Positions 20,214 through 26,707 of a DNA stretch of 32,000 bases are shown here, one piece after another (the stretch's first letter is position 1; each line of letters starts with the position of its first letter). Made by a program: the position numbers and the translations under genes. Below the pieces are notes generated by a model, which was given only the letters and a program-made list of their open reading frames with translations, was not told where the DNA came from and did no database searches. Source of the DNA: Fibrobacteria bacterium (GTDB lineage: Bacteria; Fibrobacterota; Fibrobacteria; UBA11236; JADFYW01); assembly GCA_050294405.1 (NCBI GenBank), contig JBNKOC010000032.1:61677-93676 (forward strand). The letters are read 5' to 3'.

Positions 20214-21212
20214 ATGTTTCTCGACCAATCTGTAATTGACTTTAAAAGCGGCGATGGCGGCGGCGGTATGAAACATTTCCGCAGAAGCCGTAACAACCCT
20301 AAAGGCGGACCCGATGGAGGGGATGGCGGCAGAGGCGGCCATATAATTTTAATAACATCGGAAAACCTCCACACCCTGTATGACATGAATCAAAAGCGCA
20401 AGTTTAAAGCCCAAAACGGAGATAGAGGTGGCCCCAACTTTGTGAAAGGAAAAGATGGTTCCGATATTATTCTGGAAATTCCAGTAGGAACTCTTATTAA
20501 AAATGCGGAAACTCTGGAAGTCATAGCCGATTTGGACAAACCGGGAATGCGCTACACGCTGTTAAAAGGAGGCCAGGGAGGTATTGGCAATGCCCAGTTT
20601 AAAAACTCTCGTATTCGAGCTCCTGAAACAGCCACCCCGGGTGGAAAAGGCCAACATCTATTGGTGCAGTTGGAGCTTAAGCTATTGGCGGATTGCGGGC
20701 TGGTGGGTTATCCCAATGCAGGAAAAAGCTCTTTGGTTAGAGCCCTTTCCAACGCCACACCAAAAGTGGGAGATTTCCCTTTTACCACCTTAAAACCTTC
20801 CCTGGGAATTGTAAAAGTCTCCCCCCATGAGAGTTTTGTTTTGGCGGATATACCTGGTATTATTGAAGGCGCCGCAGAGGGCCGTGGATTGGGAAACCAG
20901 TTCCTCCGCCACATAGAAAGATCGGGCTGTCTGGCATTTGTTTTAGACCCCAGCACAAAACCACTCTACCAACAATATAAAGAGCTGGTTACAGAGCTAA
21001 GAAACTACCAGCCTTCTCTGCTTTCACGACCTCGCCTTATTGTGGTAAACAAAATGGATTTAGGGGAGCCTGAAATCGAAAAGGAACTGGAAAGGGAGCC
21101 CTATCCCCTGGTAAAAACATCCACCTTGTCTCAAATTGGGCTTAGCGATTTTAGCCGCGCGGCCTGGGAACTGATTAAGCCCAAAAAAGAAGAAAGCGCC
21201 TGGAGTAATTAA
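20214..21212 (+). CDS. obgE: GTPase Obg/CgtA
   Basis: Obg fold DFKSGDGGGGMKHFRR, G1 GYPNAGKSSLVRAL, DIPGIIEGAAEGRGLG, NKMD. Confidence 0.97.
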   Translation: MFLDQSVIDFKSGDGGGGMKHFRRSRNNPKGGPDGGDGGRGGHIILITSENLHTLYDMNQKRKFKAQNGDRGGPNFVKGKDGSDIILEIPVGTLIKNAETLEVIADLDKPGMRYTLLKGGQGGIGNAQFKNSRIRAPETATPGGKGQHLLVQLELKLLADCGLVGYPNAGKSSLVRALSNATPKVGDFPFTTLKPSLGIVKVSPHESFVLADIPGIIEGAAEGRGLGNQFLRHIERSGCLAFVLDPSTKPLYQQYKELVTELRNYQPSLLSRPRLIVVNKMDLGEPEIEKELEREPYPLVKTSTLSQIGLSDFSRAAWELIKPKKEESAWSN

Positions 21213-22207
21213 AAACCCATTTCCCTTTTTAAGTTTTCCATATAGGGCCCGGCGATGGCTCTGGCTTTTTCGGCTCCCTTTTTAAGCACCTCATCCAGAT
21301 AATCCTTGTTGTCCATTAACTTGAAAAACTCTTCTCTGGGTTTTTCCAGTTGGGCATTTAAACTTTCAAAAAACATTTTTTTAGCCTGGCCCCAGCCCAT
21401 TCCCCCGGCTTCATAGGTTTTGCGGACCTCGGCATCTTGCTGCCCATTTAAAAACAAGCGATGTAAAGAATATACATAGCTTTCCTCCGGATTTTTTGGC
21501 TCTTCGGGAGTCTGGCTGTTGGTTACAATTTTGTTAATGAGTTTTTGCAGTGGCTTGGGCTGTAAAAACAGGGGTATGGTATTCCCATAACTTTTACTCA
21601 TTTTTCGGCCATCCAGACCCACTATGGTTTCCGCATGTTCACTGATTTTAGCTTCCGGCAAAACTAAAAGAGGTTTTCCGTAATGGTTGTTAATTCTATC
21701 GGCAAAATCCCGGGCAAATTCCAGATGTTGTTTTTGATCTTGTCCAATGGGAACCACATTGGCGCTAAAGAGCAAAATGTCTGCTGCCATAAGCACAGGA
21801 TAGCTGTAAAAACCCATATTCACACCATCGTCCAAATCCTTACCCGCTTCCTGATTTTTAGTCATGCGGTCCTTGTAGCCGTGGGCCCGATTCATAAAAC
21901 CTTTGGGGGCAAAACAGGATAGGAGCCAGCTCAACTGAGTGATTTCCGGAACATGGCTTTGCCGGTAAAAGATGCAGTTTTCGGGGTCGAGACCTAAAGC
22001 CAGCCAGGTGGCCCCCACGGTGTAGATAGATTCATTAAAATCCTCTGGGGCGGGAGTTGTGGTTAAAGCGTGATAGTCCGCGATAAAGTAAAGAGGCTCA
22101 TAATCTTTGGAAAGTTCAAGAGCCGGACGTATGGCCCCCAGCCAATTTCCAATATGAGGCATGCCTGTGGGCTTAATGCCCGTTAGTGATCGTAATTTCA
22201 TGTCCAA
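21209..22207 (-). CDS. trpS: Tryptophanyl-tRNA synthetase
   Basis: TGIKPTGMPHIGNWLGAIRP and GRKMSKSYGN (KMSKS) signatures. Confidence 0.97.
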   Translation of the reverse strand: MDMKLRSLTGIKPTGMPHIGNWLGAIRPALELSKDYEPLYFIADYHALTTTPAPEDFNESIYTVGATWLALGLDPENCIFYRQSHVPEITQLSWLLSCFAPKGFMNRAHGYKDRMTKNQEAGKDLDDGVNMGFYSYPVLMAADILLFSANVVPIGQDQKQHLEFARDFADRINNHYGKPLLVLPEAKISEHAETIVGLDGRKMSKSYGNTIPLFLQPKPLQKLINKIVTNSQTPEEPKNPEESYVYSLHRLFLNGQQDAEVRKTYEAGGMGWGQAKKMFFESLNAQLEKPREEFFKLMDNKDYLDEVLKKGAEKARAIAGPYMENLKREMGF

Positions 22208-22339
22208 AATTTAAAAAAAACTTGAGTCTTGTCTTTCTCAAATCCTTCGTTTTGTTGAGGATTTGTTCTGTTTTTAACGAGTTATTAAATATGCCAAAGC
22301 CACAACCTCTATTTAGCTGGTTGTGCCATCCACCTAGAT

Positions 22340-23341
22340 TTAATTCAATAAAGCGTGTTCTTGCTCAAACCAATTCAAATCTTTATTCAGAATAGTATTC
22401 GGCTTTATTGTTTTTTTATCCTTCAATTTTTTTTTATATAAAACTTTATAATAACAGTTTAATTGCTCAAATTTATTTGGGAGTATTTGTCTAACATACC
22501 CAATCTTCCCCAAAAGTCTTTGGGTATCTTTTTGTGTAATAGATCCGCTTTGCTTATGCTTACCGACCATCTTCATTATTTCATAATAATGTTTGTTTGG
22601 TATTAACAACTCTTTTTCTGGGCCGATGATAGGTCCAGTAACTGTTTTATACTTCTTTTTTGAAAAATATTTTGTTTTTTTCTTTTTTATATTTAGCCCA
22701 GCTCTTTTCAATTTGTTATCAATCAACAAATGAAAATCTTTTGATATAGGATTGTTAGTTGAAAAAGTCATATCATCAACGTATAGCGAAAAAAGCATTT
22801 GCCTGTCTTTCGCTTCTTTTGATATTTTATTAAAAAGGTTTGAATGTGTCCAGTAGGCTAAAGTTTGGCTCAAATGGCTACCTGTTGGGATGTGATCTGA
22901 ATAGCATGTAAGGTTTGCCAACAACCATGCCACATCATCACTCATTTTAAACTGATAGCGAAAAAGCCTGAACACGTGCTCCTTTTTACAGTTTGTATAA
23001 AAGCTTTCAATGTCAGTCGCCAACATGTAACTATTACTTACATGATATTTTGCGTTATCAATACTAGACACCCCTTTTTTCCCTGAAAACAAATACTCTG
23101 GTGTCTGAATTTTCATCATCAATTGTTGTAATCGAAAGTGGATTTTTTTTCTTAGGTGTATTGGCTCTTGGACTTCTCTAGTCTTAGCACCTTTCTTCGC
23201 ATCAAAAACTCTGTAAAAATTTGTGTCCGTTAGCGATGCAAGCTCTCTTACCTCTATTTTCAATATTTGACATAACCTTCTTTTATTAGAAAGCTTATAT
23301 AAAGGGCTGGAAGTAATTGGATATAATTTATGCCGTTGCAC
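22340..23341 (-). CDS. Retron-type reverse transcriptase
   Basis: Retron X-region motif NAKYH (NAxxH), catalytic LYVDDMTFS, retron Y-region VTG (YKTVTGPIIG), basic C-terminus; overlaps the HTH gene by 14 nt. Confidence 0.92.
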   Translation of the reverse strand: MQRHKLYPITSSPLYKLSNKRRLCQILKIEVRELASLTDTNFYRVFDAKKGAKTREVQEPIHLRKKIHFRLQQLMMKIQTPEYLFSGKKGVSSIDNAKYHVSNSYMLATDIESFYTNCKKEHVFRLFRYQFKMSDDVAWLLANLTCYSDHIPTGSHLSQTLAYWTHSNLFNKISKEAKDRQMLFSLYVDDMTFSTNNPISKDFHLLIDNKLKRAGLNIKKKKTKYFSKKKYKTVTGPIIGPEKELLIPNKHYYEIMKMVGKHKQSGSITQKDTQRLLGKIGYVRQILPNKFEQLNCYYKVLYKKKLKDKKTIKPNTILNKDLNWFEQEHALLN

Positions 23342-23630
23342 TTTCTATCTTTTGTAGAAATTGTATTGTTTTCTTTCGGACAAGATCTTTAAATTTTCGC
23401 TTACCTTTATCAGCTTCTAAATCTTCTGCAAAAAACAAAATCGAAGAAGGTGTTGTTTTAAATATTTTAGCGTACTTTCGTATTAACTCCAAAGAGGGTT
23501 CCTTTTTCCCGTTTTCAATCTCTGACAGATAACTAGGGGATATACTCAAATCAGCCGCTAAGTCGTAAGATTTAATGTCATGAAATTTTCTAATTAATCT
23601 AAGTGCTTCATTTACCATAGTTATAATCAT
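23328..23630 (-). CDS. XRE-family helix-turn-helix protein, retron-associated
   Basis: LAADLSISPSYLSEIENGKKEPSLELIRKYAKIF is a canonical XRE HTH; start may be the second ATG at 23618. Confidence 0.9.
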   Translation of the reverse strand: MIITMVNEALRLIRKFHDIKSYDLAADLSISPSYLSEIENGKKEPSLELIRKYAKIFKTTPSSILFFAEDLEADKGKRKFKDLVRKKTIQFLQKIESATA

Positions 23631-23651
23631 TGAGTTAAAAAAAATAGGAAG

Positions 23652-23792
23652 CTAGTCGCCAAAAACCCAGATGAACAGTCTAACCAAAAAAAGAATTACC
23701 TTGATAATTACAAGTCTCCATATTTTTCGTTGACTTTTTTTCTTTTCAGCAACAGGACTACGGGCTAATAGGTTAATGTGTTTAATAATCAT
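23652..23792 (-). CDS. Small 46-aa ORF, basic N-half and hydrophobic C-half; candidate membrane peptide/effector
   Basis: Translation by hand: MIIKHINLLARSPVAEKKKSQRKIWRLVIIKVILFLVRLFIWVFGD*. SD AAGGAG lies 5 nt before the ATG; ends 22 nt before the HTH ORF; below the ORF-track length cutoff. Confidence 0.5.
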   Translation of the reverse strand: MIIKHINLLARSPVAEKKKSQRKIWRLVIIKVILFLVRLFIWVFGD

Positions 23793-23799
23793 TTTTTCT

Positions 23800-24093
23800 C
23801 CTTTCCAGACTTGGGTTACCTACACGAGACATTCGCACAGGCCTAATTCAAGTCTCTCACAAGAAAGGTCCGTACCGTAATCCTATTCACCTCCTATTTG
23901 TTTCGCCACCGCTCTCACAGCGGTGGCATGAAATGATTGCGGAAGGGGTTTATTCAAAAGTTAAGTAGCCAATCTACCAACGGAAGGAATCAACCCTACC
24001 TCTGCAAAAAAATTGAGCATTACCCAGAAAGTAAAACTCACAGGCTTCCGCCCACTTTAGCTTTTCAGCTTTGTGAATTACGGAACCTATCAA
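23800..24093 (-). ncRNA. Candidate retron msr-msd non-coding RNA (boundaries approximate)
   Basis: Consecutive inverted repeats on the minus strand at 24087-24043, 24040-24014, 24000-23941, 23933-23901 and 23868-23800, plus long-range complement CCGTAAT (24083-24077) / ATTACGG (23881-23875). Position upstream of the retron operon. Confidence 0.6.
23901..23933 (-). ncRNA. Perfect 9-bp GC-rich hairpin within candidate retron ncRNA
   Basis: GCCACCGCT-GTGAG-AGCGGTGGC on the minus strand, extended by TTTC/GAAA across a 2-nt AT bulge. Confidence 0.75.
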
Positions 24094-24094
24094 C

Positions 24095-24160
24095 AACATG
24101 AATATAAGATCATATTCAATTTTTTGCAAATAATATTTGCAAATAGCGAATTTATTTTTG
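24095..24160. promoter_or_regulatory. Candidate divergent promoter/operator region with repeated palindromic TTTGCAAA
   Basis: TTTGCAAA at 24123-24130 and 24136-24143 (13-bp period). Minus strand: TTTG (24130-24127), 20-nt spacer, TATATTCA (24106-24099). Plus strand: TATTTTTG (24153-24160) matches the Bacteroidota -7 TAnnTTTG consensus. Confidence 0.4.
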
Positions 24161-24164
24161 GGTA

Positions 24165-24590
24165 ATCAAGGGCACGGCGTGCTTCGCACATGGTCACGGG
24201 CTCGAACTGCGTGTGAGCATGGCTGGACGGATCTGTTTTCTACGCGGTATGGGAAAGACCCAGGATACCTGGCGAAGCGATAGTGTAAAGTAAGACGCAG
24301 GGAGCTTTGCTTTCAAAGCGGCCGGATTGCTTCACCCTTTTTCATGGCCTTAGCGCGAAGGTGGGGTATCTTGGGACTTAACTTTCCTCGGTAGATTTTC
24401 TCTCCAGTCTTGCGGGGTGGCTTTTGGTGTGTACTTCCATAGCCTGTACGTATCCTATATCAGCTCCGCCTTCAAGCATATGAATGGCACAGCTATGGCG
24501 AAGTAAATGGCAAGCCCCTATTTTTTTGCGTGCCGGATTCTTAGATATGTCGCATTATTATATCGACAAGATGCCCGGCACTAAGTATTC
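24165..24590 (+). ncRNA. Candidate large structured RNA of unknown family
   Basis: Nested complementary arms: 24221-24227/24403-24409, 24239-24243/24391-24395, 24252-24257/24382-24387, 24259-24270/24364-24375. Separate stem 24432-24446/24490-24505 and hairpin 24530-24581. G-U wobbles favour the plus strand. Confidence 0.5.
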
Positions 24591-25126
24591 CCCTAAGACA
24601 ATTATAAACAAATGGCCTTCCCCGAGTATTTTAACTAGCCTTGGTGATTCCCTAAGAAATTTTTCCACCCAGAACTGCTCCCGGGGTCCAAGGAGTGTTG
24701 GAGCTGAATTTAAAATGAATTAAATTTGACTTTCCATTATCAACTTTAGGTGTGACAACTTCCCAAAAAAAGTTTTTTTTAAAACAACAATTTCAACCCT
24801 AAATTAAAAGCACCACCACTATTCTGTGTAATTTCGCAGATAATTCATGTTTTATCTAAGATTTTGCAAATTATCGAAATGGGGACAGCGGGCATAGCCA
24901 AAAGGAAATTAGTGCCTAAAGCTCCAGTAAAAAGGTATATTTAACCCAAAAAAATTACTGTTTTGCTGAATTACTCGTTTAAATGCCAGAGAGTGAAAAA
25001 ATTGTAGACTTTTTGATAAGCTAATATCACCATCTAAATCTAGTTTAATCAAAGCAAGTTCTTTATTCAACTTTCAATTGTTAATTATCCATATCACTAA
25101 ATTTTTATCAATCAAAAGTTAAAAAA

Positions 25127-26707
25127 ATGGCATATTTTAGAGTCTTTATCAAAAGTATTTGCATTGCGTTTGCCTTGGTTTCAAATGCGATCTCACAAAT
25201 AGAGCCCTGTCAAACCCTGAGTTGCGATACCCTGGCAGTTAAAGAAATTTTAGCTCTAAACGGAATAAGTAACCCTGGATTAAATGGTGTGACAATTGAC
25301 ACTTTGACAAATAGGGTCATTCGATTTGGATATGGATTTGATACCATTCCCCCGCAGATAGGTAGGCTATCTGAGCTAAAACATTTATCAATATACGGAA
25401 ACCAATCGAATATTTTAGACTTAACTAGCTTGCCAACTGAAATGAGTTTATTATCGAAGTTGGAATTATTAGAAATAAAATTTGTAAACTGGACTATTCC
25501 CCCCAAAGAAATTGGCCTCATACCCAATTTAAAGCACCTACTTGTAACCTCCTGTAGTTTAGTTGATTTGCCTGACGAGTTAACAAATCTGCCTTTGGAA
25601 TTTTTGGACATATCTTATAATAATTTTGAAAATTTACCAGATGTAATTTTTGAAATTAGCACACTTAGAAAATTTGGATCAAGAATAAACCCAATCGAAA
25701 ATATTCCACCTGAAATAGTTCAATTAACTGAGTTATGTTCTTTATATGTAACCAATAGTTCAATAGTAAAATTACCCGAAAATATTGGAGATTTAAAAAA
25801 TTTAAAATATTTGGAAGTATCAGGGTCTAAGTTAACAGTTTTGCCTGTTAGTATTGGAGATCTGGATAGCCTTCAAGAGCTGCTAGTTTTTGACAATGAA
25901 CTTAAGTCTTTACCACCAGAAATAGGTAACCTGCAAAATTTGAAAAAGCTCAGTATTCACGAAAATTATTTTGAAGAACTGCCTGCGGAAATAGGCAACC
26001 TTTCAAAGCTTGAAACTTTAAATGTCCGCAACAACCTGTTAACAGATTTGCCTTCGGAGATTGCAACATTATCAAATTTGGACAGGTTACACCTCCAAAC
26101 AAACAATATTTCCTATTTAAGAGAAGAGTTATTTACCCTGGAAAAATTGACCATTTTAGATTTGAGTCACAATCAATTGACTGAAATTCCCCCTAGTATT
26201 TCAAAATTGAATAATCTAACCCATTTATATTTAGCCTTTAACGGTTTATCAGATTTGCCATTAGAACTAACTAACATGCCCAATTTATATGCCATGGATT
26301 TAGCCTTTAATAATTTTTGCAATTTGCCAGATACACTTATCGAATGGCTTTCTACTCAAACCGCATATCTGGGAAACCCTAACACATATGAGTATATCAT
26401 GGAAACTCAAAGACTTGACTCCGTAACCTATTGTGATGGGAGTGAAATTAATGTAAAAACGGCATTCCCCTTATCAAGATCAAAAATTTATCAATATCAA
26501 CTCAATAGTGACTTTTACATAATTTTTGAAAGTTCTAGCTCAAAAAATGTGGAAATTTATAACTTGGAGGGTCGAATAGCTGCCACTTTTTATGATGTTA
26601 AAGGGCGACTAAGAATTTCAAAAGGTTCTATGCCTAATTCCATCTATTTTGTAAGAGTATTTGATGGTGACGAGACGTACACAACGAAAATTCTTTTTGG
26701 TAAGTAA
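25127..26707 (+). CDS. Secreted leucine-rich-repeat protein with T9SS type A-like C-terminal sorting domain
   Basis: Signal peptide, tandem LP.EIGNL..L..L repeats, C-terminal NVEIYNLEGRI...NSIYFVRVFDGDETYTTKILFGK. Confidence 0.88.
   Translation: MAYFRVFIKSICIAFALVSNAISQIEPCQTLSCDTLAVKEILALNGISNPGLNGVTIDTLTNRVIRFGYGFDTIPPQIGRLSELKHLSIYGNQSNILDLTSLPTEMSLLSKLELLEIKFVNWTIPPKEIGLIPNLKHLLVTSCSLVDLPDELTNLPLEFLDISYNNFENLPDVIFEISTLRKFGSRINPIENIPPEIVQLTELCSLYVTNSSIVKLPENIGDLKNLKYLEVSGSKLTVLPVSIGDLDSLQELLVFDNELKSLPPEIGNLQNLKKLSIHENYFEELPAEIGNLSKLETLNVRNNLLTDLPSEIATLSNLDRLHLQTNNISYLREELFTLEKLTILDLSHNQLTEIPPSISKLNNLTHLYLAFNGLSDLPLELTNMPNLYAMDLAFNNFCNLPDTLIEWLSTQTAYLGNPNTYEYIMETQRLDSVTYCDGSEINVKTAFPLSRSKIYQYQLNSDFYIIFESSSSKNVEIYNLEGRIAATFYDVKGRLRISKGSMPNSIYFVRVFDGDETYTTKILFGK

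Follow-up and report, generated by a model that had tools for sequence, protein, structure and literature searches.

Type VI retrons, which are bacterial anti-phage systems, were delineated by Mestre et al. 2020 (NAR 48:12632, PMC7736814) as clade-3 reverse transcriptases (RTs) with NAxxH and VTG motifs, accompanied by a Cro/C1-type helix-turn-helix (HTH) protein. In that survey, the HTH proteins were 91-110 aa long (cluster 2_1) and were encoded upstream of, or overlapping, the RT gene. Small auxiliary proteins were often associated with type VI, the clusters of small proteins (SPs) being of 75-79 aa, and the type VI non-coding RNA (ncRNA) was not found. Here, we describe a locus on the minus strand of a 32,000-nt stretch of contig JBNKOC010000032.1 (this whole stretch is referred to as the window), extending from ∼24150 to 22340 and carrying, in order of transcription, a structured RNA, an SP gene, an HTH gene and an RT gene. 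Judged from its sequence, it is very probably an intact type VI retron operon. With it, the type VI retrons gain a member from a deep-branching, uncultured genome of the Fibrobacteres–Chlorobi–Bacteroidetes (FCB) group, and the value of the locus is comparative.

Two type VI systems have been characterised in preprints of 2025-2026, in which the small-protein effector of these retrons is already described. In Retron-Vpa2 of Vibrio parahaemolyticus, a member of the ‘Large’ lineage (Zhang et al. 2025, bioRxiv 10.1101/2025.10.22.683967), the SP is a toxin encoded on the same ‘hybrid RNA’ (hyRNA) as the msr-msd template, with its ribosome-binding site (RBS) and AUG held in stems. Multicopy single-stranded DNA (msDNA) is below detection at rest, and derepression of the SP requires msDNA induced by the phage; msDNA with a matching loop is also reported to suffice when provided in trans. 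Direct repeats of 7 nt, called highly conserved in sequence, lie in the msd loop and the riboregulator loop and may contact each other, and the RT, HTH and hyRNA co-purify. Retron-Sen3 of Salmonella enterica, from the cl2075 lineage (Garcia-Rodriguez et al. 2026, bioRxiv 10.64898/2026.04.27.721009), likewise has a toxic SP. That study described the SP-HTH-RT layout, the SP clusters, the inverted repeats (IR1-IR2) flanking the SP and an RBS sequestered in the predicted fold, with the SP and single-stranded DNA (ssDNA) produced constitutively and control exerted post-translationally by HTH-SP binding. The original prediction for our locus had treated the effector mechanism of this retron type as poorly understood, a view that these two published mechanisms make outdated. 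In canonical retrons such as Ec86 (type II-A), with which the present locus shares a homologous RT and an upstream structured template RNA, abundant msDNA is the antitoxin, whereas in the type VI model drawn from Vpa2 the msDNA is an activator and the effector mRNA lies within the template RNA.

Compared by published description, the locus closely parallels Retron-Vpa2. The two have in common the order ncRNA, SP, HTH, RT and a three-arm RNA in which template and SP coding sequence are united, with the Shine–Dalgarno sequence (SD) and start codon in stems. Both have a short direct repeat, placed in the msd loop and again in the loop of the riboregulator, and an inverted repeat on the 3′ side of the SP gene. 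The SP is short in each (46 aa here against 55 aa in Vpa2) and has a C-terminal helix that is hydrophobic, and the long msd stem is followed 3′ by an element of 23 nt (the hairpin H1 here, a 23-nt msDNA 5′ extension in Vpa2). They differ in the catalytic motif (YVDD here, YADD there), in the host (an uncultured FCB-group bacterium against a Vibrio) and in the repeats, which here are 8 nt long, locus-specific and covarying within the clade, as opposed to ‘highly conserved’. With Sen3, the locus shares the SP-HTH-RT layout, the IR1-IR2 pair around the SP, a sequestered SP RBS and the same RT and HTH type; unlike Sen3, it has a 46-aa SP (79 aa in Sen3, with an N-terminal extension), direct repeats, which are not described for Sen3, and a conserved palindrome upstream of the predicted promoter that resembles a DNA operator. 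Relative to the type VI of Mestre et al., the RT motifs, the 100-aa HTH overlapping the RT and the upstream SP are the same, whereas the SP is 46 aa rather than 75-79 aa and a structured RNA is present.

The RT is encoded at 22340-23341 (minus strand, GTG start) as a protein of 333 aa that matches Pfam RVT_1 (9.1e-10). It contains both retron signatures read beforehand from the sequence, NAKYH in region X (residues 96-100, 23056-23042) and VTG in region Y (residues 234-236, 22642-22634), together with YVDD (residues 187-190, 22783-22772). In an alignment with 29 homologues, the residues of these three motifs are overall invariant or nearly so, with N96, A97, H100, D189, D190, T235 and G236 strictly invariant. 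The type VI assignment, which the original prediction had suggested, rests on profile scores and is borne out by them: in PADLOC the RT matches RT_VI with 273.7 bits (3.8e-82, model positions 1-278 of 279), against 128.8 bits for the next-best retron type, RT_II-A, and the HTH protein matches HTH_VI with 101.7 bits (4.6e-30, model positions 1-91 of 92), both matches being full-length. The best 25 of the 43 PADLOC families matched by the RT are all retron RT models. Retron families also lead in NCBIfam, where Drt3a reaches only 6e-9 and Drt2 only 2e-5, and 12 of 12 PDB matches are retron RTs, the best solved-structure relative being Ec86 (E = 3.4e-16). By sequence, only retron RTs are serious relatives in NCBIfam and PDB. 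Placement with diversity-generating retroelements or group II introns, named at the outset as a possible refutation, is contradicted by the listed PADLOC families and PDB matches, as is placement with Abi or DRT enzymes.

The Cro/C1-type (XRE) HTH protein is encoded at 23328-23630 (minus strand; 100 aa, or 96 aa if Met5 is the start) and matches Pfam HTH_3 (3.7e-12). Its TAA stop (23330-23328) lies inside the RT open reading frame (ORF), giving an overlap of 14 nt; the overlap had been foreseen, and the translational coupling that was read into it is compatible with this arrangement. The 333-aa N-terminus of the RT is backed by homologues that align from residue 1. In the public annotation (GCA_050293925.1, JBNKNQ010000016.1), the RT is instead 307 aa long with an internal TTG start; within the start region (23263-23341, minus strand), it is the upstream GTG and not the annotated TTG that gives the 14-nt overlap. 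No SD was found upstream of either the HTH start (23631-23640) or the RT start (23342-23350) on the minus strand.

The SP gene, predicted to encode a toxic effector, occupies 23652-23792 (minus strand; 46 aa, MIIKHINLLARSPVAEKKKSQRKIWRLVIIKVILFLVRLFIWVFGD), is a called gene in the public assembly and ends 21 nt before the HTH start. The protein has a basic N-terminal half, of net charge +6, and a hydrophobic C-terminal half with a mean Kyte-Doolittle hydropathy of 1.93. Used as a phmmer query on all ORFs of the fetched loci, the SP matched only itself. When aligned by hhalign to a profile of 13 neighbouring SPs, residues 21-46 matched with E = 1.5e-4 and a probability of 52%, with W25 falling on the sole invariant column (W) of the profile; family membership was thus recognised by position and profile alone. 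In length, the SP is nearer to the 55 aa of the ‘Large’ lineage of Vpa2 than to clusters cl2075, cl2760, cl3272 and cl3897 (75-79 aa for three of them). By analogy with the SPs of Vpa2 and Sen3, we infer an effector-class gene whose product would be toxic. The original prediction had suggested that this small ORF might reveal a missing effector: the effector class fits, while ‘missing’ no longer does, since toxicity of the SP has already been demonstrated in both systems. Nor is the ORF ‘extra’, as it was then called. The SP-HTH-RT layout is canonical for type VI, small auxiliary proteins were noted with it in 2020, and in nearly all relatives the place directly upstream of the HTH gene is taken by a small ORF whose product is basic in its N-terminal part and has a C-terminal helix that is hydrophobic. 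The SP is preceded by a strong SD, GGAAAGGAG (23806-23798, minus strand), while the HTH and RT starts have none.

The structured ncRNA ahead of the SP gene measures ∼300 nt. Upstream of the HTH gene, the minus strand from 24110 to 23631 folds with -143 kcal/mol (z = -3.7 against shuffles), and the minimum free energy (MFE) fold of 24094-23631 has three arms. We model the transcript as a hybrid RNA of ∼460 nt, spanning roughly 24094-23637. The msr-msd-like arm 1 (23905-24094; 24090-23905 in the MFE fold) consists of 5′ stem-loops, a long hairpin and H1. The long hairpin, imperfect and 71 nt in length (24007-23937), is likely to be the main msd stem, with the msd boundaries taken from Vpa2 (63 + 23 nt). 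H1 (23927-23905) is a 23-nt hairpin with a perfect 9-bp stem and a 5-nt loop, and the first copy of the repeat, TGTGAGAG (23919-23912), covers this loop and the adjoining stem bases. Directly after H1 begins IR1 (GAAACAAAUAGGAGGU, 23889-23904), which pairs over 15-16 nt with IR2 (GCUUCCUAUUUUUUUU, 23637-23652), situated between the SP stop and the HTH start. This long-range helix brackets the riboregulator and the SP gene, closing arms 2 and 3.

Arm 2, the riboregulator (23798-23884), comprises in turn a closing strand, an anti-SD, the second copy of the repeat, an inner hairpin and the SD. Its closing helix is formed by 23884-23875 with SP codons 10-13 (23763-23754). In the MFE fold, the anti-SD CCUUUCU (23868-23862) pairs with the SD (23806-23800), so that the SP ribosome-binding site is sequestered. 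Repeat copy 2, TGUGAGAG (23861-23854), is unpaired and lies directly 3′ of the anti-SD; the inner hairpin spans 23855-23807, and arm 3 is the remainder of the SP coding sequence. The 8-mer TGTGAGAG occurs just twice in the 32-kb window, 58 nt apart, with both copies inside the hybrid RNA. In Rfam, 21000-26000 had no relevant match at E ≤ 1, and no part of the window reached a gathering score. The RNA, small ORF, HTH and RT all lie on the minus strand where the original prediction had put them.

Homologous loci, a search for which had been proposed, were recovered by scanning genome and metagenome contigs. The RT homologues are no more than 50% identical. The scans returned 137 loci, from Fibrobacterota, Bacteroidota, Ignavibacteriota, Alpha- and Gammaproteobacteria, Firmicutes, Actinobacteria, Spirochaetes and Melainabacteria, and in almost all of them the HTH gene overlaps or abuts that of the RT. 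MAFFT alignments of the RNAs with RNAalifold yielded no usable consensus, and the RNAs were compared by per-locus folding, block-wise tests and covariance models that were seeded from the window and then rebuilt from relatives. In a set of ∼85 relatives from different phyla, both the riboregulator (anti-SD, repeat, hairpin, SD) and the IR1:IR2 clamp are kept and show covariation. All 25 relatives folded singly form H1 with copy 1 in its loop, and in most of the singly folded relatives the anti-SD:SD helix encloses copy 2 and the hairpin. The order anti-SD, repeat, hairpin, SD, AUG is kept, and the relatives also carry a long hairpin beside H1. IR1:IR2 pairing reaches z > 2 in 17 of 22 relatives, with unrelated sequence in each, and covaries; the helix that closes arm 2 by pairing with SP codons 6-15 shows partial conservation.

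A covariance model built from the window alone found six relatives at the expected place. The model rebuilt from those six with the window excluded (R2) had the window as its best match (23790-23928, minus strand; 84.4 bits, E = 1.4e-15) and found 28 further loci, every one on the RT strand upstream of the HTH gene. In the resulting alignment of 29 loci, which was fitted to the model structure, 96.6% of pair cells hold standard pairs, a share that drops to 57% on shuffling and to 40-47% when partners are slid. Each of the 23 pairs shows two-sided change somewhere, with a covariation score of 1.06 versus 0.29. All eight H1 pairs covary, the H1 stem sequence differing in every locus; covariation is also seen in the anti-SD:SD helix and at the base of the inner hairpin. 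Because the SD of the SP is kept in relatives of all phyla and covaries with the anti-SD, it may serve the riboregulator as much as initiation. One covariance-model match on the opposite strand (23904-24015, plus strand; E = 0.008) was taken as spurious.

The repeat pair was examined in the 73 loci with a recognisable anti-SD…SD…AUG arrangement, by searching 45-90 nt upstream for the word that stands 3′ of the anti-SD; in these 73 loci copy 2 lies directly 3′ of the anti-SD. An exact repeat of at least 7 nt was present in 56% of loci, compared with 3.8% at shifted control positions, and one of at least 6 nt in 66%, compared with 7.9%, with matches mostly 55-77 nt upstream. At least 21 different words are used, including TGTGAGAG, CCGCGTGAG, CTAAAGCAA, AGGGTGACT and TGCGAGATA. 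Within a locus, the two sites share a word of at least 7 nt in 78% of 27 lineages, and for sites from different loci the figure is 2.1%; the windows for this second comparison were centred on detected repeats, so the comparison with shifted positions (56% against 3.8%) is the unbiased control. A repeat that is kept as a feature while remaining private in sequence fits pairing between the cDNA of copy 1 and copy 2, and is hard to square with a conserved protein site. We nevertheless considered that the two copies might be binding sites of one protein, either the RT or the HTH, with no msDNA-RNA pairing involved. The co-purification of RT, HTH and hyRNA in Vpa2 and the location of both copies in unpaired loop regions are in keeping with such sites. 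One would, however, expect a protein site either to remain the same or to vary in step with its protein, whereas at least 21 words occur among clearly homologous RTs and HTHs and the two copies always change together, and we judge this explanation very improbable. As far as we have found, covariation of the repeat across a wider set is new relative to the Vpa2 preprint, and it supports the pairing model that the authors of that preprint left as future work.

The locus also carries a predicted sigma-70-like promoter (24101-24130, minus strand), found by a consensus scan, with a -35 box TTTGCA (24130-24125), an 18-nt spacer and a -10 box TATATT (24106-24101). The predicted transcription start at ∼24094 coincides with the upper bound of 24093 given to the locus by the original prediction; the promoter and a putative operator extend it to ∼24150. 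This putative operator for the HTH protein (24136-24150, minus strand) is a degenerate palindrome, TTCGCT-att-TGCAAA (TTCGCTattTGCAAA), at a position conserved in relatives. The family consensus is TTCGCT-N3-AGCGAA (consensus site TTCGCTATTAGCGAA). With up to two mismatches, it is found 7-10 nt upstream of a TTGACA or TTTGCA -35 box in 53 of 85 non-redundant relatives from many phyla, against a background rate of 0.0185 per equivalent window. The -10 box follows 17-18 nt after the -35 box in palindrome-bearing loci, and the arrangement of -35 and -10 after the palindrome recurs in relatives of several phyla. In L060, the palindrome stands at -508 relative to the HTH start. Extra half-sites occur between -35 and -10 in L082, L097, L098, L012 and L091, and the degenerate right half-site of the window is also seen in L037 and L112. 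Since the half-sites are conserved in sequence, often asymmetric and sometimes supernumerary, a DNA operator for a dimeric HTH explains them better than an RNA stem would. The palindrome is thus probably an operator through which the HTH protein, if it binds there, would autoregulate the operon. Neither the Vpa2 nor the Sen3 preprint mentions an operator or a palindrome.

The covariation of the repeat pair and the operator-like palindrome are the sole parts of this analysis that go beyond the literature consulted. We combine them in a tentative proposal, held with slightly more doubt than belief, that each locus has its own ‘key and lock’, a word of 6-9 nt present in the msd hairpin loop, hence in the msDNA, and in the loop next to the anti-SD, of which both copies change together, and that the palindrome is the hitherto undescribed operator of the type VI HTH protein. 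If this were true, natural covariation would amount to compensatory-mutation evidence for derepression of the toxin mRNA through base pairing with msDNA, and co-resident retrons would be insulated from one another. Together with the conserved riboregulator, these features could also aid the design of orthogonal, msDNA-gated translational switches.

For the operation of the locus, we somewhat favour msDNA-triggered riboswitching of the SP, by analogy with Vpa2. At rest, the HTH protein, RT and RNA would form a complex in which reverse transcription is restrained and the anti-SD helix blocks translation of the SP. Phage recombination proteins, or loss of RecBCD activity, would then cause msDNA to accumulate. 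The 5′ part of this msDNA would be the complement of H1, so that its loop would be complementary to copy 2 beside the anti-SD; pairing of the msDNA loop with copy 2 would open the anti-SD:SD helix. The SP would be translated, and its hydrophobic C-terminal helix would arrest or kill the cell in an abortive infection. The HTH protein would in addition bind the upstream palindrome and autoregulate the operon.

Several points weigh against this riboswitching model. The host may make little use of SD sequences if it is Bacteroidota-like. The sequence link between the SP and its neighbours in the profile is weak, and the fitting of the R2 alignment to the model structure somewhat inflates its covariation counts. 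Neither a priming (branching) G nor a canonical a1/a2 pair was identified in the RNA. All six of the type VI retrons in a census were without detectable msDNA in E. coli. Finally, the RBS of Sen3 is sequestered and its SP is nonetheless constitutive, so sequestration is no proof of translational control. This last point leads to an alternative in which, as in Sen3, the SP and ssDNA would be constitutive, the HTH protein would neutralise the SP by direct binding, and inhibition of RecBCD by the phage would free the toxin, with the RNA structures serving RT recruitment or stability rather than a translational switch. Such a mechanism has been published for a type VI retron whose RBS is likewise predicted to be sequestered, the HTH gene adjoins that of the SP in every locus in toxin-antitoxin fashion, and a palindromic operator ahead of the promoter is a usual feature of antitoxins that autoregulate. 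It leaves the covarying, locus-specific repeat beside the anti-SD without a role, however, and the 46-aa SP is close to the 55 aa of Vpa2 and unlike the 79-aa SP of Sen3 with its N-terminal extension. The relatives moreover span many phyla, as does the ‘Large’ lineage with Vpa2, unlike the mostly proteobacterial cl2075. We consider control of the Sen3 kind rather unlikely here, though a serious contender; the two models are not mutually exclusive.

The surroundings of the locus raise the further question of whether it is still active. Within a G+C-rich stretch (24160-24500) lies a fragment that resembles a tyrosine-recombinase C-terminus (HLLRHSCAIHMLEGGADIGYVQAM, 24380-24480, minus strand) and has no intact ORF; its match to Pfam Phage_integrase (7.4e-5) does not reach the curated cut-off. 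The fragment probably remains from the mobile element by which the retron arrived, and its position just upstream is consistent with horizontal acquisition. The retron could accordingly be imagined as an inactive relic in a decayed mobile element, given this integrase fragment ∼300 nt upstream, the contrast between ∼31% G+C in the retron and ∼45% in the obg and trpS genes alongside, and the degenerate right half of the operator palindrome. Yet the three ORFs are intact, the RT keeps its catalytic and retron motifs, the RNA lacks none of its elements, all of which pair well, the window is the top match of R2, and the same degenerate half-site recurs in L037 and L112. A relic therefore seems very improbable, and we retain the reading of an intact operon. 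The scan for tRNA and tmRNA genes found none, and so no tRNA attachment site.

The host had been taken for a Bacteroidota representative. Its Obg shares only 53-56% identity with the nearest homologues; the best of those with a name comes from a Fibrobacterota bacterium (56%), against 46-50% for Bacteroidota, and the closest named RT relative is from Chitinispirillaceae. These sequences place the host in the FCB group, with membership of Bacteroidota undemonstrated; with the nearest Obg at 56% identity, the host represents a poorly sampled lineage of that group. Obg, the RT, the HTH protein, the SP and a sigma-54 regulator are all five singletons at 90% identity.

Relatives with the same layout occur in Mu-like and P2-like prophages and on mobilizable plasmids of Staphylococcus, Enterococcus, Acinetobacter and Burkholderia. 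Among these, L139 is Shewanella phage vB_SspS_MuM16-1 and L140 is the Enterococcus casseliflavus plasmid pEGM182-1; the riboregulator model also matches the phage copy in L139, at 865-982.

Some minor features of the RNA may be added. A third CUGUGAG is found at 24037-24043 (minus strand), on the 5′ side of the second msr stem-loop. A YUGUGAG/CGGGAG motif is kept at the equivalent msr position in L003, L073, L082 and L085, independent of the repeat word of each locus, and the resemblance to the repeat word of the window happens to arise here. The linker after IR1 (23885-23896, minus strand) reads GGAGGUGAAU, and AGCGAA or GGUGAA is frequent after H1 in L004, L061, L067 and L010; the identity of the linker hexamer with the right half-site of the palindrome may be chance, or may mark a second HTH contact on RNA, msDNA or DNA. 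The a1 candidate with the best complementarity to the linker, UUCGCU ∼520 nt upstream of the HTH gene, proved to be the left half of the promoter palindrome, which is probably untranscribed DNA, and was discarded as a1. A second a1/a2 candidate pairs 24087-24076 with 23884-23873 (12 nt, z = 3.7). It was set aside as unconserved in relatives, its 3′ segment pairing with SP codons 6-15 in most loci, and could represent an alternative conformation. A terminator-like match at 24055-24040 (minus strand) falls inside the 5′ domain of the RNA, and a terminator role was dismissed.

Downstream of the retron, trpS lies on the same strand, 132 nt past the RT stop (22208-22339). A scan found no terminator-like site on that strand between the two, so that read-through into trpS is possible. 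On the plus strand, at 25127-26707, the window encodes a 526-aa leucine-rich-repeat protein that weakly matches a type IX secretion C-terminal sorting domain.

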